Positions 7,144 to 36,893 of a DNA stretch of 64,000 bases are shown in pieces. Each line of letters begins with the position of its first letter. The stretch's first letter is position 1. Below the pieces are notes generated by a model. It was not told the origin of the DNA and ran no database searches. It worked only from the letters and a program-made list of their open reading frames with translations. The stretch spans positions 1,284-65,283 of the forward strand of contig JALGZP010000006.1 in NCBI GenBank assembly GCA_025774845.1, given 5' to 3'. The translations under genes and the position numbers were made by a program. Source of the DNA: a bacterium (GTDB taxonomy: Bacteria > Arandabacterota > Arandabacteria > Arandabacterales > Arandabacteraceae).

Positions 7144-7200
7144 CAGTCCTTCCTTGCTGTGATACCCTCTCCAGCAGTCGCAAATCCAGGGGTGTAGCGG

Positions 7201-9124: not shown

Positions 9125-9126
9125 GC

Positions 9127-18674: not shown

Positions 18675-19775
18675 TTGGGAGGACTATTGGAGCCGAAGAA
18701 GACACCGCTTTATGACAGACAGGTTGCCCTGGGTGGAAGACCGGTCGAATTTGCCGGCTTCAGTATGCCCATTGAGTTCACCGGGGTAGTTGACGAACAC
18801 CTGAGCGTCCGGCGCGAGGTGGGTATCTTCGATGTGTCTCACATGGGTGAGATATCCGTATCGGGTGACAACGCTCTCGATTACGTCGAGAGGCTCACTA
18901 CGAACCAGGCTACCGGGCTGGATCCTTTCCAGGCACAGTACACCCTGATGCTGAACGACGACGGCGGTGTGATTGATGATCTACTGGTCTACAGAAGGAA
19001 ATTTGACTACCTGCTGGTGGTTAACGCGGCCAACACCCGGAGAGCGCTGACCTGGGTGACCGGGCATGCTCCGGCTGATGTGCGTATTGATAACCTGAGC
19101 GACGAGACCGGGCTGATTGCGCTTCAGGGGCCGAGGGCTAAAGATGTCATGAGGCAAGTGTGTGGCGATGATAATGTGTTGGGTCTCGAGCCCTTTCGTT
19201 CAATGGGCGCGACAATTGGAGACGCACCTTGTCTTGTGTCGCGGACCGGCTATACAGGAGAGGACGGTTTCGAAATCTACATCAACGCTTCAAGCACGGG
19301 CGATGTCTGGGACATCCTGATGGGCGCGGAGCCAAGGCCCAAGCCGTGCGGTCTGGGAGCACGGGATACCCTGCGCCTCGAGATGGCCTTCAGACTTCAT
19401 GGCAGCGACATGGATGAAAGCACGACACCTCTTGAAGCGGGGCTCGGGTGGACAGTCAAACTGGACAAGGGTGACTTCTACGGCCGGGATGCGTTGATCC
19501 GCCAGAAGGAAAGCGGGATACCGAGAAAGATCGTGGGTTTGAGATCGGACGCCAAACGTTTTGCGAGACGAGGCTCTAAAGTCCGGTCGGGTGGGGAGGA
19601 GATAGGAGAGGTTACAAGCGGGGGGTTCTCACCCTCGCTCGAATGCGGTATCGCTCTGGCCTACGTTGGGTCGAAGTTTGCGAAACGCAGTACCGACTTC
19701 AAGATTGATGTAAGAGGCCAACTGGTTGATGCTAAGTATGAGAAGGGGCCTTTTTACAAGAAACCGGAGAATTAG
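18675..19775 (+). CDS. gcvT: glycine cleavage system T protein (aminomethyltransferase)
   Basis: KKTPLYDRQVALGGRPVEFAGFSMPIEF, EHLSVRREVGIFDVSHMGEI, RTGYTGEDGFEI and GLGARDTLRLE are classic GcvT motifs. TTG start. Confidence 0.93.
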   Translation: MGGLLEPKKTPLYDRQVALGGRPVEFAGFSMPIEFTGVVDEHLSVRREVGIFDVSHMGEISVSGDNALDYVERLTTNQATGLDPFQAQYTLMLNDDGGVIDDLLVYRRKFDYLLVVNAANTRRALTWVTGHAPADVRIDNLSDETGLIALQGPRAKDVMRQVCGDDNVLGLEPFRSMGATIGDAPCLVSRTGYTGEDGFEIYINASSTGDVWDILMGAEPRPKPCGLGARDTLRLEMAFRLHGSDMDESTTPLEAGLGWTVKLDKGDFYGRDALIRQKESGIPRKIVGLRSDAKRFARRGSKVRSGGEEIGEVTSGGFSPSLECGIALAYVGSKFAKRSTDFKIDVRGQLVDAKYEKGPFYKKPEN

Positions 19776-19790
19776 TGGAAAGGAGATACA

Positions 19791-20171
19791 GTGATGATTC
19801 CGGACGATCTGCGTTACTCCGACAAGCACGAATGGGTCAAGGTCGATGGGGACATCGCCATTGTGGGTATAACGGACTATGCCCAGACCCAGCTCGGTGA
19901 CATCGTCTATGTCGAGCTTCCCTCGGTCGGGACCAAGGTCGAGGCTGCAGCATCGTTTGGCACGATCGAGGCTGTCAAGGCTGTGAGCGACCTTTACTGT
20001 CCGATCTCAGGGGAAGTCACTGAGGTGAATGACAACGTCACCGCCGACCCTGCCGTAATCAAGTCGTCACCCTACGGGGGTGGGTGGATGATAAAGATCA
20101 AAATGGAAAAGAAGGACGAACTCGACTCACTTCTGAATGCGGAAAAGTATCGCGAGCTCACGGGGGAGTAA
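19791..20171 (+). CDS. gcvH: glycine cleavage system H protein
   Basis: YSDKHEWVKVDGDIAIVGITDYAQTQLGDIVYVELP and the lipoyl-lysine context FGTIEAVKAVSDLYCPISGEV. 126 aa. Confidence 0.93.
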   Translation: MMIPDDLRYSDKHEWVKVDGDIAIVGITDYAQTQLGDIVYVELPSVGTKVEAAASFGTIEAVKAVSDLYCPISGEVTEVNDNVTADPAVIKSSPYGGGWMIKIKMEKKDELDSLLNAEKYRELTGE

Positions 20172-20176
20172 CCGAT

Positions 20177-21535
20177 TTGGTTTACATACCCAGGACCGAA
20201 CAGGAAAAGACGGAGATGCTGCGTGTCATCGGGGTGAAAACCTTCGATGACCTGCTTGCCGATGTTCCGGAGGATCTCCGGCTGGAACGCGAACTGGATC
20301 TGCCCCCGCCTCTCTCGGAGTTTGAAGCCAAGACGGCTCTGAGGAACCTGGCTTCCATGTCCCTCGATCCCGATGAGTGGACGTGCTTCCTGGGGGGAGG
20401 AGCTTATGATCACTACATTCCCAGCATCGTCGATCACATATCGTCGCGTTCGGAGTTCTATACGGCCTATACTCCCTACCAGCCGGAAGTAAGCCAGGGG
20501 ACACTCCAGTCGATCTTCGAGTTCCAGTCACTGATCACCCGGCTTACGGGGATGGATATCTCCAATGCCTCGCTCTACGATGGCGGCACTGCGATCGCCG
20601 AAGCCGTACTGATGGCGAATGCCGTCAACGGCAGGAAACACGTGATAGTCAGCGGCTGTATAAATCCCCTCAGGCTCGCCGTTTTAGAAGCGTATCTCGG
20701 GTCCAGCGGTTTCAAGATAAGTGTGACGGGCAGAGAAGGGGGAGCGACCGATCCGGAAGAGGTGAGATCGCTCGCGGGAGAAGACACATGCTGTGTGGTC
20801 CTTGAGAATCCCAACTTTTTCGGTGTGGTCGAGAACGGGAAGCCAATCGGCGATATAGCTCAGACAAGTGGTGCGCTCTTCATAGTATCGGTGGATCCGA
20901 TTTCACTTGGACTACTGAAACCTCCTTCAGAATACGGGGCCGATGTCGTTGTCGGCGAGGGTCAATCCCTCGGCAACAGCCTCAGTTTCGGGGGGGCATG
21001 CCTGGGCTTCATCGCAACGAGATCCCAGCATATAAGGAGGCTTCCCGGCAGAATCGTCGGCCGTACGGTTGACGCCGACGGCAACCGGTGTTTCTGCCTT
21101 ACACTCCAGACGCGCGAGCAGCACATCAGGCGTGAGAGGGCTACCTCCAACATATGTACGAACCAGGCACTTCTGGCCCTGCGTGCTACGGTCTACCTTT
21201 GCTGGCTTGGAAAGCACGGGATCGCCGAGGTGGCAAACCTGTGTCTTTCTAAAACGGTGTATGCCCACAGGCAGCTCCTTGATGCGGGTTTCTCACCCCG
21301 GTTTACCGGTCCCTTCTTCAAGGAGTTCACGATAAAGATGCCGGTCGATGCCGCCACGGTGGTTGAGCGACTGGCCGGGCAAAGGATCGCCCCGGGCATC
21401 CCGCTCGGCAGGTTCTATGAGAACGAGACCGAAACACTCCTTATCGCCTTCACGGAGAAGAGAACGAAGGCCGAGATCGACGAACTCGTCCTTGCGCTAA
21501 AGAACGCGGCGGGAAAAGGGAGGGGCGGGTCGTGA
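20177..21535 (+). CDS. gcvPA: glycine dehydrogenase (decarboxylating) subunit 1
   Basis: [54 protein letters not shown] and [21 protein letters not shown]. The likely TTG start at 20177 lies just after the gcvH stop. The ORF track starts at 20084, inside gcvH. Confidence 0.9.
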
Positions 21536-22974
21536 GGTCACGTAAGACGATATTTGAGGAAAGCAGAGAGGGACGCCGGGCATATACACTGCCGTCTCTC
21601 GACGTGCCCGCTGCCAGCCCGGATGCCGTGTTACCCCCCGGTCTTATTCGCCGGGAGGCTCCGGAGCTTCCCGAGGTTTCCGAGCCCGACATCGCTCGCC
21701 ACTTTGTCAACCTCTCGGTTCTCAATCATCATGTTGACAGGGACCTCTATCCGCTCGGTTCATGCACGATGAAATACAACCCCAAGGTCGGAGAGGACGT
21801 GGCCAACCTCAGGGGTTTCTCGGAGTTACATCCGCTTCTTCCCGAAGGGCTTGTTCAGGGTGCGCTCCGGCTCACGTACGAACTCGGTCGGACTCTCTGT
21901 GAGATAACAGGGATGGATGATGTGACGATGGTTCCCGCGGCCGGTGCTCACGGGGAACTGACTGGGATGTTGCTGGTTCGCGCATACCACGAGGACCGCG
22001 GAAGCCGGAGAACCAAGGTTTTGATCCCCGACTCCTCGCACGGCACAAATCCGGCCAGCGTCGAGATCGCAGGTTACGAGGCCGTGGAAATAAGATCGGA
22101 TTCGCGTGGCAGAATCGATGCAGACTCGCTCAAGTCCCATCTCAGTGAGGATGTTGCGGCAATAATGGTGACCAACCCCAACACGCTCGGACTCTTTGAG
22201 ACCGAGATCTGCAAAATCGCCGGACTCGTTCATGATGCCGGCGGTCTTGTTTACATGGACGGGGCCAACATGAACGCATTGCTGGGCATATCGCGACCGG
22301 GTGACTTCGGGATCGATATCGCCCATCTCAATCTGCATAAGACATTCTCAACTCCGCATGGTGGGGGAGGTCCGGGGTCCGGGCCGCTTGTGGTCAAGGA
22401 AGAACTTACCCCGTACCTGCCCGTACCCGTCGTCGGCAGGGAAGGGGATACCTACAGGTTTGTGTATGACACGCCGAAATCGATCGGTCGAATCCATACC
22501 TTCTACGGTAACTTCTCAGTTCTCATCAAAGCGTACTGCTACGTTCTGATGTGCGGGGCACATGGTCTCCGCGAGGCTGCTGAGAGTGCGATAATCAATG
22601 CGAACTACCTTCTTTCGAAACTCAGAGACGGGTTCATGGTACCTTACGATGGGGTATGCAAGCACGAATTCGTGCTCTCGGGGAAGGACAAGCTGAAAGC
22701 CGGTGTCAGAACCGCCGACATCGCCAAGCGGCTCATGGACTATGGTTTTCATCCACCTACCGTGTACTTCCCGCTAATCGTTGAAGAGGCTCTTATGATC
22801 GAGCCCACCGAAACTGAATCCAGAGAGACCCTCGACAGGTTTGCCGAAGCACTCGGCCGGATCAATGCCGAGATCGAAGCCGATCCCGAGAAGGTCAAGG
22901 GAGCACCCTATTCGACACCCGTACGCCGGGTCGATGAGGCAATGGCGGCAAGGAAGATCGATGTCGCGGAATGA
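21532..22974 (+). CDS. gcvPB: glycine dehydrogenase (decarboxylating) subunit 2
   Basis: [23 protein letters not shown] and the PLP-lysine context [19 protein letters not shown]. The start overlaps the gcvPA stop. Confidence 0.92.
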
Positions 22975-23401
22975 AGCCGGACAAGAGCTGGAGTGGAGCA
23001 TATTTCCCTTCCTGGAAAACCTCAAACGCTCAATCATCGTCGTGGTTGTGATACTGGTCTGCGGGCTCCTTGTCTATCTGGCGTTCAAGGACATGTTCCT
23101 TGCGCTGCTTTCGGTACTGATTCTTTTTGTTTCGCTCCATACCTACTTCAGCAAGACCACCTACCGGCTCGACCGGGACGGGGTGGTTATCAGAACTTCC
23201 CTTGCAAAAACCGTTAAGAAGTGGTCTGATTTCAAGAGATACTATGCCGACCGGAAGGGGGTTACGCTTTCTCCATTTGCCAAACCCTCGAGACTCGAGC
23301 CCTTCAGGTCGGTGAGGTTACTTTACAAGGACAATAAAGACGATGTGGTGGAGTTTGTTTCGACGAACATCGAGCGCAGCACCGCCGATAGCGCCGCCTA
23401 G
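22961..23401 (+). CDS. cassette protein P1: two-TM membrane protein with a PH-like soluble tail, unknown function
   Basis: ATG at 22961 overlaps the gcvPB end by 14 nt. TM segments [19 protein letters not shown] and [19 protein letters not shown] are followed by [12 protein letters not shown]...[10 protein letters not shown], which resembles bacterial PH (YdbS/T-like) domains. Confidence 0.6.
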
Positions 23402-23756
23402 GGATGTATCAGGAGAGGTCGAACCGGCCTCCGAGGATGAGGAGCTGATAAGAAAGGTGGCGGAGCGGATAGTCCGGATGAGGATGACTGTACCTGCCAT
23501 ATTCTTTCTTGAATCGAGCAAACCGCTTGCTTTTCTGGGCAGCCAGTTGCTAATCTTTCTAGAACCATTTGTCCAGACCCTGTTTAACATCCGCCAGTAC
23601 CAGCGATTTGCCTTGCTTATGGAAGACAGGGATAACTGGGAGAAGATGATCAGGAAAGTCGAGGATCTCGAAGCGGAGTACTCCGAACGCGAGAAGGAGT
23701 CTAAGAGACAAAAATCTAAGAAGCAAAAAGATTCCACGAGGGGAAAGAAGAAATGA
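23343..23756 (+). CDS. cassette protein P2: small protein with one hydrophobic segment and a Lys/Glu-rich tail, unknown function
   Basis: VPAIFFLESSKPLAFLGSQLLIFLEPFV followed by ...EAEYSEREKESKRQKSKKQKDSTRGKKK. The start is uncertain (ATG 23343 overlaps P1 by 59 nt; an in-frame GTG lies near 23457). The stop overlaps the P3 start. Confidence 0.5.
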   Translation: MWWSLFRRTSSAAPPIAPPRDVSGEVEPASEDEELIRKVAERIVRMRMTVPAIFFLESSKPLAFLGSQLLIFLEPFVQTLFNIRQYQRFALLMEDRDNWEKMIRKVEDLEAEYSEREKESKRQKSKKQKDSTRGKKK

Positions 23757-25594
23757 CAGAAGGGGTCGATCTGAACAAGGATCCGGAATCAATACAGACC
23801 ATAGTCGCGACCGACTGCGGGAGCACGACCACGAAAGCCATATTGATAGAGAAGCATGATGGTCATTACCGGCTTGTCAACAGGGGTGAAGCTCCCACCA
23901 CGGTTGAAGCACCATTCGAAGATGTTACGCGTGGGGTTCTCAATGCGGTCGCGGAGGTCGAGGATCTTACGGGCCGGCAGTTCATAAGAGACGACAAGAT
24001 AGTGTATCCGAGGGAGGGCGAGACGGGGACGGATCTTTATGTGTCCACGTCGTCCGCGGGCGGCGGGCTTCAGATGATGGTCGCGGGCGTGGTAAAGGAG
24101 ATGACGGCGGAGAGCGCACAGCGAGCCGCACTCGGCGCCGGTGCGATCGTCATGGATGTGATCGCCTCAAACGATCGGAGACAGCCTTACCAGAGGATCC
24201 GCCTGATACGAAACCTCAGACCGGACATGATCCTGTTGTCGGGTGGGATAGACGGCGGTACGACGACCCATGTTGCGGAGCTTGCCGAGTTGATCGCGGC
24301 GGCCGACCCGAGACCCAGGCTGGGGATGGCATACTCACTGCCTGTTATCTACGCGGGCAACGTCGATGCAAGGGAGATCGTCAAGGACAGGCTCGACGCC
24401 AAGAGCAGCCTGACGGTCACGGAGAACCTTAGACCGGTTCTTGAAAGAGAAAACCTCCAGCCGGCGAGACTCCGGATCCAGGACCTGTTTCTTGAACACG
24501 TGATGAAGCACGCACCGGGGTACAGTAACCTTCTTGAGTGGACCGCGGTGCCGATCATGCCAACTCCCGCTGCGGTCGGTTCGATAATGCAGTTGATCGC
24601 CAGAGAAGAGGAGATAGACGTGGTCGGTGTTGACATCGGTGGTGCCACGACCGACGTGTTCTCGGTGTTCGGCGAGGTCTTCAATCGAACTGTGAGCGCA
24701 AACCTCGGTATGAGTTACTCGGTATCCAACGTGCTCGCCGAGGCGACCGTTCCAAGCATCCTGAGATGGGTCCCGTTCGATGTTGAGGAAGCAGACCTCA
24801 GAAACCGGATCAAGAACAAGATGATCCGGCCTACAACCATACCTCAGGCTCTCGAGGAGCTGATGATCGAGCAGGCGATCGCCCGGGAAGCATTACGGCT
24901 TGCCTTCATACAGCATAAGCTCCTTGCGGTAGGGCTTAAGGGTGTACAGCAGGAACGGACAATATCCGATACTTTCGAGCAGACCGAGAGCGGTGCGACG
25001 CTCGTCAACATGATGGACCTCGACATACTGGTGGGAAGCGGCGGTGTCCTGTCGCATGCTCCACGCAGAGTACAGGCGGCCTTCATGTTGATCGATGGAT
25101 TCTATCCTGAGGGCATCACCCAGCTCGCCGTAGACAGCATTTTCATGATGCCCCAGCTGGGAGTTCTTGCACAGGTACATCCCAAGGCGGCGATGGAGGT
25201 GTTCCACAAGGACTGTCTGATCAAGCTGGGGACGTGTGTAGCGCCCGTAGGCGTTTCCAAAACAGGTGACCAGTGTATTGACATAACACTCGAGATGCCG
25301 GACGGCAAGACTGAGAAGAGATCAGTCAAGTTCGGCGAGATGGCGGTGATCCCGCTTGACGTTGACGCCAAGGCCAAGGCTGTCATAAATCCGGCAAGGA
25401 AGTTCGACGTGGGGGCGGGCAGGGGCAAGGAGATACATACCGAGATCATCGGCGGGGTGGTCGGGGTGATCATAGATGCCAGGGGCAGACCTTTGATACT
25501 GCCCACTGACAGGGGTGAGAGGGTTCGTATGCTGACCGAATGGAACAAGGCCCTCGATGTTTATCCGGAAAACCGCGAATCAACGGAGGTGTGA
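23753..25594 (+). CDS. cassette protein P3: GlmL/MutL-like ASKHA (actin-fold) ATPase, 613 aa
   Basis: The N-terminal phosphate-1 motif IVATDCGSTTTKAILIEK and the second nucleotide motif VVGVDIGGATTDVFSV resemble the GlmL family (glutamate mutase accessory protein) and EutA-like reactivases. No mutase subunits are nearby. Confidence 0.7.
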   Translation: MTEGVDLNKDPESIQTIVATDCGSTTTKAILIEKHDGHYRLVNRGEAPTTVEAPFEDVTRGVLNAVAEVEDLTGRQFIRDDKIVYPREGETGTDLYVSTSSAGGGLQMMVAGVVKEMTAESAQRAALGAGAIVMDVIASNDRRQPYQRIRLIRNLRPDMILLSGGIDGGTTTHVAELAELIAAADPRPRLGMAYSLPVIYAGNVDAREIVKDRLDAKSSLTVTENLRPVLERENLQPARLRIQDLFLEHVMKHAPGYSNLLEWTAVPIMPTPAAVGSIMQLIAREEEIDVVGVDIGGATTDVFSVFGEVFNRTVSANLGMSYSVSNVLAEATVPSILRWVPFDVEEADLRNRIKNKMIRPTTIPQALEELMIEQAIAREALRLAFIQHKLLAVGLKGVQQERTISDTFEQTESGATLVNMMDLDILVGSGGVLSHAPRRVQAAFMLIDGFYPEGITQLAVDSIFMMPQLGVLAQVHPKAAMEVFHKDCLIKLGTCVAPVGVSKTGDQCIDITLEMPDGKTEKRSVKFGEMAVIPLDVDAKAKAVINPARKFDVGAGRGKEIHTEIIGGVVGVIIDARGRPLILPTDRGERVRMLTEWNKALDVYPENRESTEV

Positions 25595-25597
25595 AAG

Positions 25598-26731
25598 GTG
25601 GCACACGCTTATTCACCCGGACTGAGGGTTGCCAGACAGACCAAGATAAGGAAGGAACGCAGACTGCCTTTGCGCGGTGAGGTTCTGGCTGCGGTTGGCG
25701 ATCGGGTTCAAGCTGAGGCGGTTGTCGCGAGGACCGAACTGCCCGGAAACGTTCAGACGATCAACGTGGCCAATAAACTCAGCATCCTTCCTGAGGACAT
25801 TGAACGCCATATGCTCGCCAAGCCCGGGGATTGGGTTGATGAGGGCGAAATCCTCGCCCAGAGCAGGAGCTTCTTCGGTCTCTTCAAGTCGCACTGCAAG
25901 ATGCCGGTAGGAGGAACGATTGAATCCGTCTCCGAGATCACCGGCCAGGTGATCATAAGGGAAGTAGCGATACCCGTGGAAGTGAATGCGTATGTCGACG
26001 GTGACGTGGTGGAGGTCTTTGAGGACGAGGGTGTGCTCGTCGAGACCGAAGGGACGTTCGTTCAGGGTATCTTCGGAATCGGTGGGGAAGCGGTCGGTAC
26101 GCTCGAAGTTGTCGCCGATAATGGCAGCGAAGTGCTGTCTCCCGATGTCATTACACCTTCGCACAAGGATAAAATCATCCTCGGTGGCTCGCTCGTCACC
26201 ATGGATTCGCTCAAACGTGCAACGGAGGTCGGTGTAAGGGGAATAATCGTCGGCGGCATGGGCGATTCAGACCTGCGCACGATCCTTGGCTATGACCTGG
26301 GTGTGGCAATAACAGGTTCGGAAGATATCGGTCTCAGTCTCATTGTGACCGAGGGGTTCGGCGAGATGACGATGGCCAAGCGTACATTCGATCTGCTCGC
26401 TTCCAGACGGGGAATGAAGGCATCAATAAGCGGGGCGACTCAGATAAGGGCCGGCGTGATAAGACCGGAGGTCGTAATTCCCCTGGACCGTGTCGCAGGT
26501 GAGGATCAGGAGAAAGCACGCCGCGACGCGCCATCGACGGGTCTCGTTGTTGGAAGCTCGGTCAGGGTGATAAGGGTACCTTACTTCGGCAGGATCGGAA
26601 AAGTAACCGATCTGCCTCCGGAGCTCCAGAAGCTCGGGTCCGAGGCAATGGTGAGGGTACTCGGTGTGGAATTCGAAGACGGTGCCCACGCCGTCGTACC
26701 GCGGGCGAACGTAGAACTTATCGAAGAGTAA
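25598..26731 (+). CDS. cassette protein P4: soluble protein with an N-terminal barrel-sandwich-hybrid-like region, unknown function
   Basis: GTG start 3 nt after the P3 stop. LPLRGEVLAAVGDRVQAEAVVARTELPG and AKPGDWVDEGEILAQ...MPVGGTIESV resemble the RnfC/NqrA/lipoyl-like hybrid barrel. A Rossmann-like middle follows (VRGIIVGGMGDSDL), then a small beta C-terminal domain. Assignment by eye only. Confidence 0.55.
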   Translation: MAHAYSPGLRVARQTKIRKERRLPLRGEVLAAVGDRVQAEAVVARTELPGNVQTINVANKLSILPEDIERHMLAKPGDWVDEGEILAQSRSFFGLFKSHCKMPVGGTIESVSEITGQVIIREVAIPVEVNAYVDGDVVEVFEDEGVLVETEGTFVQGIFGIGGEAVGTLEVVADNGSEVLSPDVITPSHKDKIILGGSLVTMDSLKRATEVGVRGIIVGGMGDSDLRTILGYDLGVAITGSEDIGLSLIVTEGFGEMTMAKRTFDLLASRRGMKASISGATQIRAGVIRPEVVIPLDRVAGEDQEKARRDAPSTGLVVGSSVRVIRVPYFGRIGKVTDLPPELQKLGSEAMVRVLGVEFEDGAHAVVPRANVELIEE

Positions 26732-26736
26732 GGATC

Positions 26737-27888
26737 GTGATGGGCATTTCCCCCTGCGGGACACACCCCACCCTGTATCTACTTCTGTTCGTTTGCACTC
26801 TACTTGCAGTCACCGGTACGGCTTCAGGTTTGGAGTACCACATGGCTCCGATCTCCGTTTCCGTCACCGACGTCCCGGACGATGACGGCACCGCCCTCGT
26901 TATAAGATGGGCCGGTGAGATTACACCCGGCCAGACCCTGGAGATCTCAAGAGCCGAGTACCCGGATACCGCTTCCTGGTCGGAGGTTGCAGCGGTCGAT
27001 GCGGAGCGCCGGGAGTATACCAATACGGGGCTCTCAAGGCACAGGTCCTACATCTTCAGAGTGACTTCCCCCGACGGCTCCGTCGTGCTGACGGAGGCCG
27101 TGACACCGAGAGCGTCGATGCTCAGTCGCGGGAGGATAAACCAGCTGGTGATCCTCACGCTCTTTTTCGCTTTCGTCCTTATCTACATACGGTTGGCCAC
27201 CGCGGGCAGGAAACTCTTCGTCCGGAAGATCCCGGGACTCAATGCCATCGAAGAAGCAATTGGCAGGGCCACGGAGATGGGTAGACCCGTCCTTTACGTT
27301 CCGGGGATAGATGATCTCAACAATATCCAGACGATAGCCAGCATGGTCATTCTCGCTGACGTCGCACGGCTTACGGCAACCTACGAGACCCCGGTGATTG
27401 TACCCGTCTGCAAGCCCTTTGTCGTTCCTGTCGCTGAGGAGGCGGTCAAGCAGGGGCATCTCAACGCGGGCCGCCCCGAACTCTACAACCCCGACAACGT
27501 GAGATACCTGTCCGATGAGCAGTTCGCTTTCACCGCCGGAGTCAACGGTATCATGCTCAGGGAAAAGACGGCGGCCAACATCTATATGGGCTCTTTTTTC
27601 GCCGAGTCGCTCATTCTTTCGGAGACGGGGTTCTCATCGGGTGCGATACAGGTTGCAGGGACCGCGAATATCCACCAGTTGCCCTTCTTCGTAGCTGCAT
27701 GTGACTACACCCTGATAGGTGAGGAACTGTATGCAGCGAGCGCCTATCTCTCGAAGGAGCCGAAACTGCTGGGTACACTCAAGGCGAGTGACCTGGCGAA
27801 GGTTCTGATCTTAATAGTGCTGGTCATAGGGTTCATCACAGAGACACTGGGTTTTGAGGGTTTTGCCGAATGGTTCACCCCGAGGTAA
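26737..27888 (+). CDS. cassette protein P5: bitopic/tritopic membrane protein with an FN3-like ectodomain and a large cytoplasmic domain
   Basis: Signal/anchor LYLLLFVCTLLAVTGTASG, then an FN3-like stretch (VSVTDVPDDDGTALVIRWAG...YIFRVTS). TM LVILTLFFAFVLIYIRLA is followed by about 220 aa of soluble sequence and a terminal TM VLILIVLVIGFI. Confidence 0.6.
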   Translation: MMGISPCGTHPTLYLLLFVCTLLAVTGTASGLEYHMAPISVSVTDVPDDDGTALVIRWAGEITPGQTLEISRAEYPDTASWSEVAAVDAERREYTNTGLSRHRSYIFRVTSPDGSVVLTEAVTPRASMLSRGRINQLVILTLFFAFVLIYIRLATAGRKLFVRKIPGLNAIEEAIGRATEMGRPVLYVPGIDDLNNIQTIASMVILADVARLTATYETPVIVPVCKPFVVPVAEEAVKQGHLNAGRPELYNPDNVRYLSDEQFAFTAGVNGIMLREKTAANIYMGSFFAESLILSETGFSSGAIQVAGTANIHQLPFFVAACDYTLIGEELYAASAYLSKEPKLLGTLKASDLAKVLILIVLVIGFITETLGFEGFAEWFTPR

Positions 27889-27892
27889 AGGT

Positions 27893-28513
27893 ATGAAGAA
27901 CGAGGTCCCGGTTGCGATAGCGTTTGCGGCAGGGATGCTTATGGTCGTATCGCTCTTCGTCCCTCATCCTTACATATCCGGCCCGGCAGCCGTTGCTAGG
28001 AGCTGGGCCATCATCATAACTGCATTTGCGTATGTTCTGGGTGTTGCGAACATTGCCAGGATAAGCATCAACACGGTGAGGAAGAAGTCGGCGGACTGGG
28101 AATACAAGACCGCTCTTCTTGTCGCACTCGCGGGTATGGTCGGGGTCGGAATCGGCAGGGGCATCCAGACCGGCAGTCCTTTCGACTGGACATATCTCAA
28201 TGTTTACGTCCCGATGCAGGCGACGATGTTCTCGCTGCTCGCCTTCTTTATCGCGTCAGCTGCTTACAGGGCGTTTCGCGCAAGATCCGTTGAAGCAACG
28301 CTTCTTCTTGTCACAGCTGCGATCGTCATGCTCGGGAGAGTACCCGTAGGCGAGCAACTCTGGGGCAGGCTCCCCGACTTCACGGAGTGGATAATGGAGG
28401 TTCCCAACATGGCCGCGAAGCGGGGGATCATGATAGGAGCGGCACTCGGCGCGATATCCACGGGTCTTAAGATGATTCTGGGACTGGAACGATCCTACCT
28501 GGGTGGTGAATGA
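27893..28513 (+). CDS. cassette protein P6: polytopic membrane protein (5-6 TM), unknown function
   Basis: ATG at 27893 follows GAGGTAAAGG, 4 nt after the P5 stop. Hydrophobic helices run throughout. The stop overlaps the P7 start (ATGA). Confidence 0.6.
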   Translation: MKNEVPVAIAFAAGMLMVVSLFVPHPYISGPAAVARSWAIIITAFAYVLGVANIARISINTVRKKSADWEYKTALLVALAGMVGVGIGRGIQTGSPFDWTYLNVYVPMQATMFSLLAFFIASAAYRAFRARSVEATLLLVTAAIVMLGRVPVGEQLWGRLPDFTEWIMEVPNMAAKRGIMIGAALGAISTGLKMILGLERSYLGGE

Positions 28514-29358
28514 TGAAGGAAACCGGCAGCCGCAGAGACTTTATTACAAGGCTTTCGAGCATCGACAGAAGGATTCTTTTCCTCATAATCCTGGTCTGCG
28601 TGGTCATACCCCTGCTCGCCGGAGCGAGGATGAGGATGTCGATCACCCCGCCGGTAAGAGGTCTCTACGATGCGATCGACACGCTGGAGCCGGGTTCGTA
28701 CGTGTGGCTCGCGGCCGATTACGGTCCGGGATCGATGCCCGAGCTCTACCCGATGAATATCTCCTTTGTCGAGCACCTCTTCTCGAAGGACATCAAAGTC
28801 ATCTGTGCAGCCCTGTGGGCCCCCGGGCCCCCGCTTGCACAGAGGGTCTTCGATGAAATGGCAGCCAAGTACGGCAAGACGTACGGGGTTGATTACGTCA
28901 ACCTGGGTTTCAAGGAAGGACGAGAAGCCGTTATGGTGTCGGTCGCCGAGGACATGCGGAGGACGTTTCCCGAGGACTACGCGGGCACTGCCTGGGACAG
29001 CATACCTATGCTCGAGGGCATCCGGAATCTCACGGATCTTGAGATGATCGTCTGTGTGTCGGCGGGCTACCCCGGCATAAAGGAATGGATACAGCAGGTA
29101 TCGACGCGGTATGACATCACGACCGGCGGTGGCGTGACGGCTGTCTCCGGGCCCGAGATGTACCCCTACATCCAGTCGGGCCAGCTCGTGGGTCTCCTTG
29201 CGGGTATGAAGGGCGCCGCGGAGTACGAACAGCTCCTCGAGAAGCCGGGTCTCGGGCTCTCGGGCATGGCTGCGCAGTCATACGTTCACCTGATGGTCGT
29301 CGTTTTCATTATCTTTGCCAATATCATCTACTTCATCGAGAAGCGGAGAGCTGTATGA
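28510..29358 (+). CDS. cassette protein P7: membrane-anchored protein (N- and C-terminal TM flanking a domain of about 220 aa), unknown function
   Basis: RILFLIILVCVVIPLLAGA ... YVHLMVVVFIIFANIIYFI. ATGA overlaps at both ends. Confidence 0.6.
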   Translation: MMKETGSRRDFITRLSSIDRRILFLIILVCVVIPLLAGARMRMSITPPVRGLYDAIDTLEPGSYVWLAADYGPGSMPELYPMNISFVEHLFSKDIKVICAALWAPGPPLAQRVFDEMAAKYGKTYGVDYVNLGFKEGREAVMVSVAEDMRRTFPEDYAGTAWDSIPMLEGIRNLTDLEMIVCVSAGYPGIKEWIQQVSTRYDITTGGGVTAVSGPEMYPYIQSGQLVGLLAGMKGAAEYEQLLEKPGLGLSGMAAQSYVHLMVVVFIIFANIIYFIEKRRAV

Positions 29359-30104
29359 GACTGAGGTTAGCGCTGACGGGTGTTGTCGTGGTGCTGGTGG
29401 TCATCGCACTGGCCTCGGGGAGGATCACATCCGTCACGTTCGGCAAGTGGGTCGCCGCGCTCCTGACGCTTTCGATCTTCAGCTTTCTCTACAAGGATAA
29501 CCCGGTCTACAAGATGGCGGAACATGTTTTCATAGGTATCTCCGCGGGCTACTTCGTATCGTTGGAATACTGGAATGTGTTTATACCCAACCTCTGGAGC
29601 CCGCTTATGGAGGGGACGCGTGAGAACATGATCCTGGTGGTGCCGTTTGCCCTGGGTCTGCTTCTGTTTTCAAGATTCCATCCACGCGTTGCCTGGCTCA
29701 GCAGGTGGTCGATGGCGGCGATGATAGGTTCCTATGCGGGTCTTGCGATAATAGGCGCACTCCAGGGGGATCTGGTCGCGCAGATAAGGGCCAATATGAT
29801 TCCGTTGTATTCTCCCGAGAGCATTGTCGCGCTCGGGAACAGCCAGGGCGCGACCGAGATCTTTTTCGGTCTGCTCGAGGTCCTTCGGAATCCGCTGATC
29901 ATAATCGGTCTGATCGCCACACTGATCTATTTCTTCTTCTCACGCGAACACAAGGGCGGGTTCGGTGTTGTTTCCAGGGTCGGTGTTTGGTTTCTCATGA
30001 TATCCTTCGGGGCTTCATTCGGGTATACGGTGATGAGCAGGGTGTCGCTTCTGATCGGAAGGCTCCACTTCCTCCTGAGTGACTGGCTGGGCATAATCCC
30101 TTGA
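29355..30104 (+). CDS. cassette protein P8: polytopic membrane protein (6-7 TM), unknown function
   Basis: 249 aa of hydrophobic helices. The start overlaps the P7 stop (ATGA). The stop overlaps the TTG start of the lipoate ligase-family gene (TTGA). Confidence 0.6.
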   Translation: MRLRLALTGVVVVLVVIALASGRITSVTFGKWVAALLTLSIFSFLYKDNPVYKMAEHVFIGISAGYFVSLEYWNVFIPNLWSPLMEGTRENMILVVPFALGLLLFSRFHPRVAWLSRWSMAAMIGSYAGLAIIGALQGDLVAQIRANMIPLYSPESIVALGNSQGATEIFFGLLEVLRNPLIIIGLIATLIYFFFSREHKGGFGVVSRVGVWFLMISFGASFGYTVMSRVSLLIGRLHFLLSDWLGIIP

Positions 30105-30925
30105 CGAAATCCAAGCAGAAACTTGAAACACTCGAGTTCGGTACGTATGACGCCCGCTACAACATGGCGCTTGATCTCCACCTCTATACACTTTGCGAGA
30201 ACGGTTCGAACCGTGGTTTCCTGAGATTCTACACATGGTCCAGGCCCACGCTGTCGCTCGGTCATTTCGAGGACGAAGGTGTTATCGACATGGCCAGGGT
30301 ACTTGAGGACGGAGTCCAGGTGGTCAGGCGGCCGACCGGTGGGCGGGTGGTTCTTCATGGCGATGACCTGACCTATGCTGTCATTGTACCCGGAGGGGCC
30401 GGCCGGAGCATGCTTGAGACATACAGGATGATCTCGGAGTGCATAGTAAAAGGCTTGAACCGGTTGGGGATAGAGGCGGGGCTAGAACGGAGTACGGCGT
30501 GCAAGTCCGACGTCACACGGAAGCCCTGCTTCGTATCGACAAGCAGGTATGAGATTCTTCACGGGGGCAGGAAGGTGGCCGGCAGTGCTCAGAAGACAGG
30601 GGAGACCGCCGTTCTCCAGCACGGCAGCATACCCCTTGGCCCGGGTTACCTCGGGGTCGTCGACTACATGGCCTCTGGATATGGGGACCGGATGACGCTT
30701 CGCTCCGACATCGACGCTGCGACAACCTGCATTTATGACCTTCTCGGATCATGCCCTGCGCCCTCAGAGGTCGCGTCAGCACTGGCTCTCGGCTTCGCCG
30801 AGCGATTCGACCTTGTTGAGCGCGGAACTCACACCGATGTAATAGACAGGGAGATCATAGATGCCCCTCAGGGGCTCGAAAAGGGGGTTTCCTGGCCCTC
30901 TGGAGTGACAGACAAAAGCACTTGA
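30101..30925 (+). CDS. lipoate/octanoate-protein ligase family protein (BPL_LplA_LipB catalytic domain)
   Basis: FYTWSRPTLSLGHFED, VVRRPTGGRVVLHGDDLTYAVIVP and GGRKVAGSAQKTGETAVLQHGSIPL (catalytic Lys context) match LplA/LipB-type catalytic domains. TTG start. Confidence 0.75.
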   Translation: MTKSKQKLETLEFGTYDARYNMALDLHLYTLCENGSNRGFLRFYTWSRPTLSLGHFEDEGVIDMARVLEDGVQVVRRPTGGRVVLHGDDLTYAVIVPGGAGRSMLETYRMISECIVKGLNRLGIEAGLERSTACKSDVTRKPCFVSTSRYEILHGGRKVAGSAQKTGETAVLQHGSIPLGPGYLGVVDYMASGYGDRMTLRSDIDAATTCIYDLLGSCPAPSEVASALALGFAERFDLVERGTHTDVIDREIIDAPQGLEKGVSWPSGVTDKST

Positions 30926-30949
30926 CAGTAAGTCTTTGGTTTTTATATA
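30922..30949 (+). promoter_or_regulatory. candidate promoter TTGACA-16-TATATA upstream of receptor gene A
   Basis: TTGACA at 30922-30927 (overlapping the ligase stop) and TATATA at 30944-30949. Pattern match only. Confidence 0.4.
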
Positions 30950-30979
30950 GTAACCTCGGATGATGGCTTCTATACTAGG

Positions 30980-33721
30980 ATGATGTCGGCCCAACCCAAA
31001 AGGGGGATGGATACTATGCCTTCCTTGTCGAAAACCTCTGTAGCCGCCTTAGTAGTTCTACTGGCTCTCACCGCGTCTTTAGCCTCCGCCCAGGACACCG
31101 GAAGGATCTCCGGTATGGTAGTCGGCACCAAGGATGGTAAGCCTCTAGGGTTCGCGAACGTCCTCATAATCGGGACGGGTATAGGTACATTTGTTAAGGA
31201 CAACGGCCGGTTCGCACTCGAGAGCGTCCCGCCGGGAACCTATACTGTCAAGGTCATGATGATGGGTTTTGGATCCAAGACCCAGGAGAACGTGCTTGTC
31301 ACCGCCGGGCAGACGACCGAGCTTAAGTTCGAGCTGGCGGAGACCGTTGTTCTCGTCACCGACGTGGTTGAGATTACCGGTGACAGACCTATGGTTGATA
31401 CCGAGCGTACCCAGACCAAGCGGACTATTACGACCGAGGAGGTTGCGGTTAGGTCTATCAACACCGTTGAGGACGCTATTGCCGCACAGGCCGGAGTTGT
31501 GCTTGAACAGGGTGAGATTCACATCAGGGGCGGAAGATCGGGTGAGGTCAAGCAGTTCATCGACGGTATGCAGATCAGCGACCCGTTCGTGGGTCGTAAT
31601 ACGATGGAAGTAAGCCTGACGTCACTCTCCGAGATCGAGGTGCTCTCGGGTGGTTTCGATGCTGAGTACGGTAATGTCCAATCCGGTGTGATTAACCTGA
31701 AGACCAGGGAAGGCGGCACCAAGTACTCCGGCGTGATCAGATTCATGACGGATGATTATGGTGCACCCGACAAGACATATTTCAACTATGACAATGTCGC
31801 GGTCGGCTTCGGCGGACCGCTAATCACCACAGATCTGAGGTTCTTTGCATCCGCTGAGGCGGTATTCACCGATACGTATCTCAAGACCCTGGAGCCCAGA
31901 CAGCAGAAGGAGCTGTGGGGTTTCATCAAGTTCCGTGAGCGTCAGGCAAACAACTACTCGGGCCAGGGGAAGATGACGTACTTCTTCTCACCTACTAAGA
32001 AGATATCCAGTGAGATCCTGGCCTCAGGCGAAAAATACGATTTCTACAGTCACACGATGAGCAGGGTGGGGTACTGGTCGGATCTCTACAACCATTGGTG
32101 GTTTGAGCCATTGGATGAGACCTACAGTCTTTACCTTGGTCCGTCTCACACACCTGATATCACAAATAAGCACATGAGCACAAAACTGGTGTGGAACCAT
32201 ACACTGAGCCCCTCGGCGTTCTATACGATGAGGCTGGGTCGGTACACCACGCTTCACAAACTTGTTGTGCTTGACAAGGAGCCCTGGCAGTACCAGTGGG
32301 AGAGCCAGTTTGAGAGGCTCGATCCTGAGAACCGCTACTATATTGTAACGGGTGACTATCCCCACTGGCAGCGTTACCACACCACGATGTGGACCGGTAA
32401 AGGTGACATGACCATCCAGAAGTCCACGACACACCAGATCAAGTTTGGGGCCGAGAGTAACCTCTACAGGCTCGAGATGGAGGACTTGAGATGGCCCTCG
32501 CTGGATCAGCCGCTGGGTGTGTTCACCGATATATACAAGTTCAATTGCTGGGGGCTTTCGGCTTTCATGCAGGACAAGATAAAGTTCGAGGGTATGAACG
32601 TGAGGGTCGGGCTGAGGTTCGATCTCTTCGATCCGGGCAAGGATGCGGTCGAGGCATATTACAGATTCATCGGCTCTACGGGGCTGTCTACGGGTGAGTC
32701 CGGGTTCTTCAAACGGAGCGAGTGGCAGATAAGCCCGAGGCTGGGTGTGTCGTACCCCGTTTCTGAGAGGGATGCGCTTTACTTCAACTACGGCAGGTTC
32801 TACCAGATACCGAGACTCGAGGTTCTGTTCCAATTCCTGGGTCAGACAGAGACAGGACTTCTGGAGTTCGGCAATCCCCTGATGGAAGCAGAGACCACGA
32901 TCATGTACGAGGTCGGGATTCAGCACCAGTTCACGCAGACGATAGTGGGCGACATCGCCCTGTTCTATAAGGATATATTCGGTCTGACCGGTACACTGCC
33001 GGGTGATCTTACCGAGGACTCACCGTTCATACAGCAGTATGGTCCTACGTCGACCCCGGTAGTCTATACCAACCTTGACTACGGTTCGGTCAGGGGTATT
33101 GAGTTTAAGCTGACCAAGCGTTTCAGTAACCGTTTCAGCGGGAGTATGACCTATACCTTCTCGAAAGCAACCGGATCGAGTTCGAACGAGCTTCAGGGTT
33201 CGAACGTGGTGAGCGGCGGTATGGATCGTGCGCCGATTACCGAGCTCCCCCTTGACTGGGATCGGAATCATGTGATCGCGGCAAACCTCTACATCAGCGA
33301 GCCAGGTCTATGGGGCTGCAACGTGGACTGGAGTTACTCATCGGGAGCGCCCTACACGCCTATGATGCCGCGGGAGCGAGAGGTACGGGCGACTCTGATC
33401 AACACCGAGAGGTTGCCGGCGCGTAGCACGGTCAATGTAAAGGCTGACAAGCGTTACAAGATAGCCGGCCAGGAGATATCTCTGTTCCTGGAGGCCCGGA
33501 ACGTACTTGACAGGCAGAACATTTCAAATGTGAACCCCGCGGTTTGGCCGGGAGGCACTGGCAACTACGTATCCTATTACACCACTGAGAGTGAACTTGG
33601 CGGAGCCTATGACATGGGTGAGTTGCTGGGGCTTGCCGAGGTTGACTATCGAGCGCTGAACGATCCGCGGGTGTACGCATCACCCAGGAATGTCAGGGTC
33701 GGCGTATCGTTTGACTGGTAA
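30980..33721 (+). CDS. TonB-dependent-receptor-like outer membrane barrel with N-terminal carboxypeptidase-regulatory-like domain (cassette A)
   Basis: GRISGMVVGTKDGKPLGFANVLIIGT...PPGTYTVKVMMMGF (CarboxypepD_reg fold). Plug motifs IHIRGGRSGEVKQFIDGMQI and LSGGFDAEYGNVQSGVINLKT. A long beta-rich barrel ends VGVSFDW. The true start may be ATG 31007 or 31016 (signal peptide MPSLSKTSVAALVVLLALTASLASA). Confidence 0.85.
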   Translation: MMSAQPKRGMDTMPSLSKTSVAALVVLLALTASLASAQDTGRISGMVVGTKDGKPLGFANVLIIGTGIGTFVKDNGRFALESVPPGTYTVKVMMMGFGSKTQENVLVTAGQTTELKFELAETVVLVTDVVEITGDRPMVDTERTQTKRTITTEEVAVRSINTVEDAIAAQAGVVLEQGEIHIRGGRSGEVKQFIDGMQISDPFVGRNTMEVSLTSLSEIEVLSGGFDAEYGNVQSGVINLKTREGGTKYSGVIRFMTDDYGAPDKTYFNYDNVAVGFGGPLITTDLRFFASAEAVFTDTYLKTLEPRQQKELWGFIKFRERQANNYSGQGKMTYFFSPTKKISSEILASGEKYDFYSHTMSRVGYWSDLYNHWWFEPLDETYSLYLGPSHTPDITNKHMSTKLVWNHTLSPSAFYTMRLGRYTTLHKLVVLDKEPWQYQWESQFERLDPENRYYIVTGDYPHWQRYHTTMWTGKGDMTIQKSTTHQIKFGAESNLYRLEMEDLRWPSLDQPLGVFTDIYKFNCWGLSAFMQDKIKFEGMNVRVGLRFDLFDPGKDAVEAYYRFIGSTGLSTGESGFFKRSEWQISPRLGVSYPVSERDALYFNYGRFYQIPRLEVLFQFLGQTETGLLEFGNPLMEAETTIMYEVGIQHQFTQTIVGDIALFYKDIFGLTGTLPGDLTEDSPFIQQYGPTSTPVVYTNLDYGSVRGIEFKLTKRFSNRFSGSMTYTFSKATGSSSNELQGSNVVSGGMDRAPITELPLDWDRNHVIAANLYISEPGLWGCNVDWSYSSGAPYTPMMPREREVRATLINTERLPARSTVNVKADKRYKIAGQEISLFLEARNVLDRQNISNVNPAVWPGGTGNYVSYYTTESELGGAYDMGELLGLAEVDYRALNDPRVYASPRNVRVGVSFDW

Positions 33722-33743
33722 TCTCGAGACGGAGGACCTGACG

Positions 33744-35876: not shown

Positions 35877-35911
35877 ACAATTTCCATATAGCATGGAAGG
35901 AGGAAGTTAAA

Positions 35912-36889
35912 TTGAGAGGAACTCTGTCGATTGCGGTTGCGGTGATTCTGCTCCTGACGGTGTCATGCTGGTCCGGGGAGATGTTTGAGAAAGTCGGGAC
36001 GGTCGGGGCGCAATTCCTCAAGATAGGCGCGGGTGCCCGTGGAGTGGGGATGGGCGAGGCGTTTGTGGCCCTTGACGGAGATGCTACCTGCATTTACTGG
36101 AATCCCGCAGGTGTGGCCACTATCGAAGGTAGCCAGTTCACCCTCAACCATTCAACGTGGCCTGCCGAACTCAGCCACGAGTTTGCTGCCTATGTCTTTT
36201 CCTACAAGTTCATTCCCGGCGTTCTCGGTGTCAGCGCCACGGTTCTCCAGATGGATCCGATGCCCGAGACGACGGAGTACAGGCAGGGTGGGACGGGGTA
36301 TTCCTTTGATGCCGGAAGCATGGCATTTGGACTCACCTATGCCAGGATGCTGACGGATCGATTCTCATTCGGTTTAACCGTCAAGTGGGTTCACGAGGGT
36401 CTTGCGGATTTCAGCGGTGAGACGGTCGCGCTGGATCTTGGAACGATCTACAATACGGGGTTCCGTGATATCAAGATCGGGATGGCCTTTGTGAACATGG
36501 GTTCAGGGTATACCCTGATTGAAAACGGCAAGGAAAGCCCGATGCCCGTGATGTTCAAAGTTGGTGGAGCGATGCCCCTGATGAACACAACTGATCACCG
36601 GGTGCTGGGCGCGCTTGAGTTCAATCATCCACCCGATGGGGCGGAGAGGCTCAACGCCGGTGGGGAGTATATCTACCAGAAGTATGCTCCCAACTTCGAA
36701 GTGGCTCTGAGGGGTGGTTACAGGTTTAACAGGGACGAGGAAAGCCTCACCGCCGGATTCGGCATAAGGTTCCCGTTCGTCAGGATAGGCCTGATCAACA
36801 AGGCATCGATCTGGAGCATCGACTACGCTTACTCCGAGATGGGGCTTCTTGAGAGTTCCCACAAGATCTCATTGAGCGCACAATACTAG
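35912..36889 (+). CDS. PorV/PorQ-like (UPF0164-type) outer membrane beta-barrel (cassette A)
   Basis: TTG start follows AAGGAGGA. GAQFLKIGAGARGVGMGEAFVALDGDATCIYWNPAGVA is the family's N-terminal signature. The protein is beta-strand rich and ends in ...SLSAQY. Confidence 0.7.
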   Translation: MRGTLSIAVAVILLLTVSCWSGEMFEKVGTVGAQFLKIGAGARGVGMGEAFVALDGDATCIYWNPAGVATIEGSQFTLNHSTWPAELSHEFAAYVFSYKFIPGVLGVSATVLQMDPMPETTEYRQGGTGYSFDAGSMAFGLTYARMLTDRFSFGLTVKWVHEGLADFSGETVALDLGTIYNTGFRDIKIGMAFVNMGSGYTLIENGKESPMPVMFKVGGAMPLMNTTDHRVLGALEFNHPPDGAERLNAGGEYIYQKYAPNFEVALRGGYRFNRDEESLTAGFGIRFPFVRIGLINKASIWSIDYAYSEMGLLESSHKISLSAQY

Positions 36890-36893
36890 GTTT

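Follow-up and report, generated by a model that had tools for sequence, protein, structure and literature searches.

The eight genes that we call P1 to P8 lie on one strand between gcvPB and a gene for an LplA/LipB-family protein, in a 64,000-nucleotide stretch (the window) of contig JALGZP010000006.1 from a bacterium of the Arandabacteraceae. An earlier note, made from the letters of this stretch, had described them as a single translationally coupled cassette of unknown function. We find that the cassette is made of two separable units: (P1)-P2-P3-P4, which includes the gene for an ASKHA-fold ATPase (P3) and a soluble protein (P4), and P5-P6-P7-P8, which encodes a membrane module. It is tempting to speculate that P2 to P8, with P1 as a lineage-specific accessory, constitute one ATP-driven machine of the inner membrane, which would translocate a substrate or transduce energy in the service of the envelope. 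We favor this reading of the sequence data, but hold it tentatively. With somewhat more reserve, we suggest that the proteins may represent a new class of ATP-driven membrane machine, in which an ASKHA (GlmL-type) motor and a barrel-sandwich/KOW adaptor are combined with interchangeable four-protein modules. Such a class would be ancient, probably with a core envelope function in a large share of the uncultured bacteria related to the Fibrobacteres-Chlorobi-Bacteroidetes (FCB) group and in Ozemobacteraceae. It would be new in kind, since we found no described transporter, secretion, respiratory, defence or cytoskeletal system with this composition.

The division into two units emerges from a comparison of the best 80 P5 loci, searched with all window proteins by tblastn; the locus counts given below derive from this set. 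The P5 family as a whole is present in at least 558 species-representative genomes, as judged from a profile search. The 80 loci come from Eisenbacteria (~28), Zixibacteria, Ignavibacteria, WOR-3, Calditrichaeota, Fermentibacteria, Coatesbacteria, Stahlbacteria and others, and the named P5 matches include no cultured host, only metagenome-assembled genomes (MAGs) and metagenomes. For each open reading frame (ORF), up to 80 independent loci carry an orthologue (30-95% identity), and the gene order is preserved, which argues that P1 to P8 are genes and not chance ORFs; gene order, whose recurrence in other genomes the earlier note had left to be checked, is thus very widely conserved. The order P5-P6-P7-P8 is fixed in 75-78 of the 80 loci (P6 follows P5 in 78, and P8 is in place in 75). 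P2 lies directly before P3, and P3 directly before P4, in 35 loci out of 35, and P2 holds the same position at loci L088-L091; P1 precedes the P2-P3 pair in 27 of 35. Among the 48 loci with enough upstream sequence, P4 abuts the first P5 in 32.

Behind a single P3-P4 pair stand one to three P5-P8 modules, paralogous copies arranged in tandem. More than one copy is present in 20 loci (three at L009, L007, L010, L076, L071 and L082; two at L020, L032, L040, L041, L044, L045 and L080), and one Zixibacteria MAG carries a fourth, stand-alone module on another contig (L046) besides its three-module cluster (L010). The units also occur apart: L083 has gcv-P1-P2-P3-P4 and no module, L088 and L089 have UDG-P2-P3-P4 beside flagellin genes, and the WOR-3-type loci have P5-P8 modules with no P3-P4 within 10 kb. 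The proposal of one conserved cassette therefore stands insofar as the genes form a conserved, co-transcribed-looking unit, but not in the sense of an indivisible set of eight. A neighbour-joining tree of P5 resolves at least three old paralogue clades common to several phyla, and places the window P5 with that of the last module of three-module clusters. In Zixibacteria/Ignavibacteria-type clusters this last copy, orthologous to the window P5, is devoid of the FN3 part and only ~290-307 residues long. A second P5-P8 module was looked for elsewhere in the window, and none is present.

Within the set, no protein is as conserved as P3, whose mean column identity is 73% across 30 orthologues. Together with the DUF6754 domain of P5 it exceeds GcvP in conservation at the same loci (at L012, 65% and 54%, respectively, versus 53%). 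Residues 17-488 match the Pfam family MutL (PF13941) from end to end (E = 1.7e-126; 423 bits, cutoff 27; all 450 profile positions covered), and are followed by a C-terminal extension, a beta-rich domain of ~125 residues. The motifs TDCGSTTTKA and VGVDIGGATTDV are both present and invariant across the 30 orthologues, as are the nucleotide-binding motifs phosphate-1 (T20-K28), phosphate-2 (D294-D301) and adenosine (G428-G431). Their forms, DxGSTTTK, DIGGATTD and GSGG, agree with the ASKHA consensus DxGxTxxK, DxGGxTxD and GxGG, and from these invariant motifs we predict that P3 can bind ATP. The assignment of P3 as a GlmL/MutL-like ASKHA ATPase, already made in the earlier note, is thus borne out. 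The protein falls far under the NCBIfam cutoffs for GlmL (NF040745, 221.9 versus 475), Or-4 (NF040744, 208.6 versus 600) and TIGR01319 (161.2 versus 204), which argues for a separate subfamily. Sequence and profile searches of the PDB returned no relatives of P3; its match to MreB-like_C is insignificant (E = 0.099), and the profile recovered no actin-like PDB entry. As the earlier note had also claimed, no enzyme that a GlmL-type reactivase would serve accompanies it: B12-mutase subunits (glmS/glmE, oraS/oraE) are missing within ~10 kb in a 90%-identical contig, among the scanned window ORFs and at the other annotated loci, and no glutamate mutase, B12 or radical-SAM gene was seen in the part of the window ORFs scanned or in the annotated 90%-identical contig.

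P4, gauged from an AlphaFold2 (AF2) model with a mean predicted local distance difference test (pLDDT) score of 83.5, consists of an N-terminal barrel-sandwich-hybrid domain, a central alpha/beta domain and a C-terminal KOW/SH3-like domain; the beta-rich N-terminus, where the sequence MAHAY(T)PGL is invariant, scores above 90. Weak Pfam matches among 32 homologues agree with this picture (Biotin_lipoyl in 26, RnfC_N in 22, NQRA_N in 13 and Peptidase_M23 in 9; best E values, 2.6e-7 for Biotin_lipoyl and 4.5e-8 for RnfC_N/NQRA_N). Foldseek comparison of the model with PDB and viral structures gave KOW domains only, with global TM-scores of ~0.13. P4 had been taken for a soluble protein with a barrel-sandwich and a Rossmann-like part, a description to which the AF2, Foldseek and homologue Pfam results add the KOW domain. 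Two specific roles were considered and rejected. The fold matches that of lipoyl or biotinyl carriers, but the hairpin region (A44-x-T46-x-L48-P49-G50) has no conserved lysine at its tip, the sole invariant lysine being K19. A phospho-histidine relay through His3 is contradicted by the fusion protein P0265, in which this histidine is replaced.

This fusion is one of two, in separate lineages, that join P3 and P4 in a single polypeptide of 995 (P0265) or 1003 (P0342) residues. They were found in a P4 profile search over 1.84 billion cluster representatives, which returned 1028 relatives at E up to 1e-30. Both were verified against P3 (61% and 51% identity) and are represented by 8 and 4 distinct full-length sequences, respectively, from many contigs. 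The P0265 gene (L090, 10001-12988) has a P2-like gene before it and P5-P8 directly after it. The P0342 gene (L091, 1083-4094) stands in a permuted order, P8 - P2-like - P3P4 - Wzz, with the Wzz/GNVR gene joined to the fusion by an ATGA overlap. A member of the P0342 sequence cluster, P0402, is annotated "glutamate mutase L [Candidatus Ozemobacteraceae bacterium]", from a lineage outside the FCB-type phyla, and some P4 homologues are labelled "transcription antitermination factor NusG" by JGI; each name has probably been carried over misleadingly from a single domain. At L084, L086 and L087 a P4 homologue occurs without P3 or module, just downstream of the gene for a TMEM260_N/TPR GT-C-like protein of ~930 residues, and V-type ATPase genes lie near the stand-alone P4 in two of these three loci. 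No relationship between the C-terminus of P3 and P4 was detected with hhalign.

In P5, residues 126-379 match PF20539 (DUF6754; E = 4e-113, 377 bits versus a cutoff of 27), and the match recurs in 25 of 25 homologues. Conservation of the domain is extreme, and dozens of its polar residues are invariant in the P5 alignment. The hydropathy profile of P5 comprises a signal peptide, two clear transmembrane (TM) segments and about four weakly hydrophobic ones. The latter belong to DUF6754, whose grand average of hydropathy is +0.27, and are split by K/R-rich loops predicted to be cytoplasmic. The domain thus probably forms two helical hairpins that enter the membrane from the cytoplasmic side and are partly embedded. 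Invariant residues E290, E296, N311, H313 and D323 are located in these hydrophobic hairpins, and their acidic or polar nature suggests a site for an ion or a substrate. The FN3-like ectodomain that the earlier note had discerned is confirmed by a profile match to titin FN3 in the PDB (E = 2.6e-18) and by seven strands in the AF2 model (pLDDT 85-93); taken alone, the window P5 matches Pfam fn3 at no better than E = 0.21.

The remaining proteins of the module resist classification: P6, P7 and P8 have no consistent Pfam match across 31 orthologues each (E up to 1) and no PDB match. P6 has six predicted TM segments and an invariant cytoplasmic motif, A.SAA(F/Y)RAFRAR; its only recurrent Pfam match is a weak one to TMD0_ABC, a generic 5-TM bundle (11 of 31 orthologues, best E = 0.0014). 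P7 has TM segments at 21-39 and 258-276, flanking an alpha/beta-type domain of ~215 residues predicted to be periplasmic, with invariant D70, E78, D128, Y220, Q225 and E240. P8 has six or seven predicted TM segments and the conserved motifs LYKDNP.YK.AEH and FFFS.EHKG, which brings the total for the P5-P8 module to ~16-20 TM segments. Comparison by hhalign gave no relationship between P6 and P8 or between P5 and P7. The idea that P7 might be a Wzz-type polysaccharide copolymerase (PCP) was likewise discarded, its profile matching the adjacent Wzz of L091 with E = 0.024 in a database of eight sequences.

Of the small proteins, P1 has one or two N-terminal TM segments (one at 24-42) and then a bacterial-PH-like domain, for which the orthologues give weak matches to bPH_7 and YcxB only. 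It is an accessory part, restricted to certain lineages. The conserved core of P2 is a weakly hydrophobic hairpin (VPAIFFLESSKPLAFLGSQ..F.EPFV), and its C-terminal tail is highly charged; P2 has no family match and no TM segment above threshold. Hence, of the proteins said in the earlier note to carry TM segments, P1 and P5-P8 are predicted to do so, whereas P2 has none that can be called with confidence.

How might these proteins work together? One could envision that P3, as the ATPase, and P4, as an adaptor, form a cytoplasmic complex, which P2 and P1 would tether to the membrane and which would dock on the conserved cytoplasmic loops of P5. P5, P6 and P8 would make up a membrane-embedded translocation core, while activity on the periplasmic side would fall to P5, through its FN3 domain, and to P7, through its alpha/beta domain. 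ATP hydrolysis by P3 might then drive conformational changes in the module, so that a substrate (an ion, a small solute or an envelope precursor) is moved or force is transmitted, and one P3-P4 energizer could serve from one to four paralogous P5-P8 modules. The P3-P4 complex is supported by the invariant adjacency of the two genes and by the two independent fusions. The physical contact of P3/P4 with P5, the coupling to ATP, the translocation activity and the existence of a substrate are what we infer from the domain content and arrangement of the genes. A role in the envelope is pointed to by the recurrence of varied neighbors: TonB/ExbBD, Wzz, GT-C, BacA/UbiA and PorV-like genes. Several points weigh against a machine of this kind. 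The GlmL family is thought to comprise chaperones or reactivases of soluble B12 mutases, not transport motors, and we know of no transporter with an ASKHA ATPase as its motor. At 16 of the 48 loci P3-P4 does not adjoin the module. AF2 gives no reliable model for the DUF6754 region (pLDDT below 50), whose embedding in the membrane is deduced from hydropathy alone. Finally, the envelope-related neighbors vary between phyla and constitute weak context evidence.

Some of these same points can be read differently. P5-P8 might be self-sufficient, as a transporter powered by ion-motive force or as a periplasmic enzyme complex, with P3-P4 acting as an ATP-using assembly or repair factor by analogy with the GlmL, EutA and DdrA reactivases; ATP would serve to open the membrane complex and to insert or exchange a cofactor or a subunit. 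That P3 has no named relatives other than GlmL and Or-4, accessory proteins of B12 mutases, that P3-P4 and the modules are sometimes encoded apart, and that several paralogous modules may share one P3-P4 pair would all fit. We nevertheless consider this unlikely, if deserving of attention: the alignments of P5-P8 contain no cofactor signature (Cys/His clusters, a B12 motif or a periplasmic flavinylation motif), P3 scores far under the GlmL and Or-4 equivalog cutoffs, and its position as the most conserved protein of the set would be unusual for an accessory factor. Improbable, in our view, is a cytoskeletal role, in which P3 would polymerize in an actin-like manner and P4, P2 and P1 would link the filaments to P5-P8 anchors for envelope growth, shape or motility, in analogy to MreB-RodZ or Agl-Glt. 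The ASKHA/actin fold of P3 inspires the comparison, and so does the coupling of the WOR-3-type module to DUF4388 and to an ExbBD-TonB-like motor, DUF4388 and TolQR-type motors having been linked to gliding in other bacteria. However, the match to MreB-like_C is not significant, no actin-like relative turned up in the PDB even with the profile, and P3 belongs to the hydantoinase/GlmL branch, of which we know no member that polymerizes. Least credible is a divergent Rnf/Nqr redox pump in which P4 would stand for RnfC/NqrA, P5 for RnfD/NqrB, P7 for RnfG/NqrC and P6 and P8 for RnfA/E or NqrD/E. The RnfC_N and NQRA_N matches in 22 and 13 of the 32 P4 homologues (best E = 4.5e-8) hint at it, and the sizes, topologies and order of P4-P8 are loosely like those of rnfCDGEA. 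This possibility is largely refuted, and we give it very little credence: neither the window proteins nor 25-31 orthologues each of P5-P8 (E up to 1) match Rnf-Nqr, NQR2_RnfD_RnfE, FMN_bind, Fer4 or Complex1_51K; conserved Cys clusters are missing; P5 is much poorer in clear TM helices than RnfD/NqrB; the window P4 itself falls short of E = 0.1 for RnfC_N; and an ATPase takes the place of the NADH or ferredoxin module.

The flanking genes raise the question of a tie to glycine or lipoate metabolism. The cassette could import glycine or lipoate, or handle the lipoyl-H protein at the membrane, and P4 does contain a lipoyl/biotinyl-like barrel-sandwich domain. In Eisenbacteria-like lineages, 25 of the 27 informative loci have gcvT and gcvH, with or without gcvP, immediately before P1-P3. 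An LplA-family gene follows the last P8 in 30 of 61 loci. The gcv linkage, which is attached to the P1-P4 side, outlasts the loss of gcvP (L011, L015, L035, L039 and L056) and of the adjacent P5-P8 (L083), and persists to ~45-55% protein identity (Fermentibacteria, L078 and L079), which argues against a recent insertion. Yet neither gcv nor lplA is near the cluster in L082, of the Zixibacteria/Ignavibacteria three-module type, in L088-L091 (which include the fusion and Ozemobacteraceae-type loci) or in the WOR-3-type loci, and this makes an obligatory tie unlikely. Moreover, the P4 hairpin has no conserved lysine, and an Rfam scan of the whole window found no element, hence no glycine riboswitch. 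Almost all long ORFs from ~6 to 57 kb lie on the + strand, so that conservation of gene order is expected within related lineages anyway; together with the steady climb of the cumulative GC skew across the window, this strand bias is consistent with one leading-strand replichore segment. We thus regard a function in glycine or lipoate metabolism as quite improbable. The gcv genes are conserved neighbors, not shown to be part of the machine, and their linkage and that of lplA probably reflect inherited gene order, not an obligatory functional tie. The earlier note had offered a choice between an insertion into a gcv-lplA operon and a functional tie to glycine or lipoate; it was right in seeing a linkage, but what remains of either option is at most a lineage-specific association.

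The machine that we favor can also be set against known systems. With GlmL/MutL and Or-4, P3 shares the end-to-end PF13941 match and all ASKHA nucleotide-binding motifs. It differs in its sub-cutoff scores, in its additional C-terminal domain and in its company, never a mutase here but always P2 and P4 and usually membrane modules. The barrel-sandwich N-terminus of P4 homologues, a weak match, recalls RnfC and NqrA, which are likewise soluble and encoded before membrane subunits; P4, however, lacks their NADH, FMN and Fe-S domains and has a KOW domain, and the membrane proteins match no Rnf/Nqr family. By analogy only, the use of one cytoplasmic ATPase for several paralogous membrane modules, adjacent or dispersed, resembles the importers of the energy-coupling factor (ECF) and ATP-binding cassette (ABC) types. 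Here the ATPase is of the ASKHA and not the ABC fold, and no EcfT, EcfS or ABC permease family was found. An equally loose analogy is with Wzm/Wzt, KpsMT with its PCP protein, and GldAFG, which likewise pair small 6-TM proteins with a bitopic one bearing a large periplasmic domain between its two TM segments. The likeness extends to the neighbors of the cassette (Wzz, TMEM260-like GT-C, BacA and TonB/ExbBD), but the cassette itself has no match to ABC2_membrane, Wzz or ABC_tran.

Searches of the PDB with the sequences and profiles of P3-P8 yielded only the FN3 domain and a weak match to KOW, and the Pfam scan of 25-32 orthologues each of P4-P8 (E up to 1) was informative for P4 alone. P2, P4, P6, P7 and P8 matched no Pfam family, NCBIfam family or PDB sequence; none of P1-P8 matched ABC_tran ATPase or ABC permease families in Pfam and NCBIfam, or PADLOC defence models at E up to 0.1; and a literature search on DUF6754, PF13941, GlmL and related terms turned up no relevant paper. 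Thus, profile searches on each protein place P4-P8 in no characterized family and offer no explanation of a known ABC or Rnf type, and the earlier failure to match the cassette to any described transporter, secretion, respiratory or cytoskeletal system holds after Pfam, NCBIfam, PADLOC, PDB, Foldseek and literature searches. If P2-P8 do form one machine, they would represent a new way to couple ATP hydrolysis to a membrane process and would assign a function to DUF6754 and to five or more protein families absent from family databases. High conservation in at least 558 species-level genomes of phyla abundant in sediment, soil and digesters makes an important physiological role likely, probably in envelope biogenesis, uptake or energy transduction. 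Another consequence concerns the "glutamate mutase L" label, which misleads metabolic reconstructions based on these MAG genes.

The positions of the genes are collected in Table 1; all eight ORFs were located on the + strand at the coordinates first assigned to them. The junctions are as tight as had been claimed (ATGA-type overlaps or gaps of 5 nucleotides or less) in most cases: ATGA overlaps join P2 to P3, P6 to P7 and P7 to P8, and gaps of 3, 5 and 4 nucleotides separate P3 from P4, P4 from P5 and P5 from P6, respectively. P1 overlaps the end of gcvPB by 14 nucleotides, and at the other end the stop codon of P8 and the TTG start codon of the LplA-family gene overlap as TTGA. The P1/P2 junction departs from this pattern, with an overlap of 59 nucleotides if P2 starts at 23343. 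This start is uncertain, because the N-terminus (MWW..FRR) is kept in close relatives only, the core being conserved from about residue 33, and because a later start is called in the 90%-identical contig, giving a 94-residue product. The alignment of P1 orthologues begins at MS.NEAGQ..EW. For P5, the GTG start at 26737 is preferred over the later ATG chosen by the gene caller (P0001, 348 residues), since it retains the hydrophobic signal peptide present in all orthologues.

Table 1. Window positions, strand and assignment of the cassette genes and of the genes on either side.
Feature	Coordinates	Strand	Assignment and basis
P1	22961..23401	+	Small membrane protein, 146 aa; ORF call, TM prediction, orthologue alignment
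P2	23343..23756	+	Small protein, weakly hydrophobic hairpin and charged tail; ORF call, core alignment
P3	23753..25594	+	ASKHA-fold ATPase, MutL/GlmL family (PF13941)
P4	25598..26731	+	Soluble three-domain protein; AF2, Foldseek, Pfam scan of homologues
P5	26737..27888	+	Signal peptide, FN3, TM, DUF6754 (PF20539), C-terminal TM
P6	27893..28513	+	Polytopic membrane protein, 6 predicted TMs
P7	28510..29358	+	Bitopic, predicted periplasmic domain between two TMs
P8	29355..30104	+	Polytopic membrane protein, 6-7 predicted TMs
gcvT, gcvH, gcvPA, gcvPB	18675..22974	+	GCV_T, GCV_H and GDC-P Pfam matches on 90%-identical contig
LplA/LipB-family catalytic-domain protein	30101..30925	+	274 aa; PF21948, TTG start

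Two of the flanking genes deserve comment. As listed, the gcvPA ORF starts with a GTG at 20084 and shares 88 nucleotides with the end of gcvH (20084-20171); its true start is probably further downstream, the gene calls in related contigs being 443-450 residues long. The LplA-family protein matches PF21948 with E = 1.8e-28 and misses every NCBIfam LplA cutoff by a wide margin; rather than a ligase, it could be an octanoyl or lipoyl transferase of the LipM/LipL type. A scan of the region for promoters and terminators gave results no different from shuffled sequence. Its best sigma-70-like match (30922-30951: TTGACA, 18 nucleotides, TATAGT; 11 of 12 positions) falls in the 55-nucleotide gap before the receptor-like gene, which suggests that the gcv-cassette-lplA transcription unit ends at lplA.

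The wider surroundings of the cassette differ from one group of loci to another. In the window the order is UvrA, gcvT, gcvH, gcvPA, gcvPB, cassette, LplA-family, receptor-like, 728-residue protein, PorV-like and GWxTD. The WOR-3-type loci have P8 in translational coupling with DUF4388; downstream, closely packed on the same strand, are four small unknown genes and then ExbB-ExbD-ExbD-TonB (L061, 3362-8503; similar in L053, L054, L058, L067 and L074). A TMEM260-like GT-C gene adjoins P4 in three loci. Of 51 loci, 19 have a TonB-dependent-receptor-like gene downstream, at a distance of 8 kb or less, and none has one upstream, but this context is weak, since receptor genes of this type are frequent in the present genome, with two in the 64 kb of the window. 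Downstream of lplA, a conserved block (30980-38474) encodes a CarboxypepD_reg/Plug/TonB-receptor-like protein of 913 residues, the 728-residue protein, which belongs to no family and has homologues downstream in 9 loci, and the PorV-like and GWxTD proteins. Further on come another GWxTD protein (46689-47954) and another receptor (50915-53524), which shares 29% identity with the first. Between 41769 and 50777 there are a TolC-like OEP, an HlyD-type adaptor and two MacB/FtsX-type permeases, with no ABC ATPase among the scanned ORFs, and then NlpC/P60, DUF1611 and an MR_MLE-family epimerase, a set of the kind found in peptidoglycan-peptide recycling. On the other side of the cassette, a translationally coupled string at 6034-9933 encodes an Arf-like/DO-GTPase2-like GTPase (369 residues), a TPR protein, a UbiA prenyltransferase and the undecaprenyl-diphosphatase BacA.

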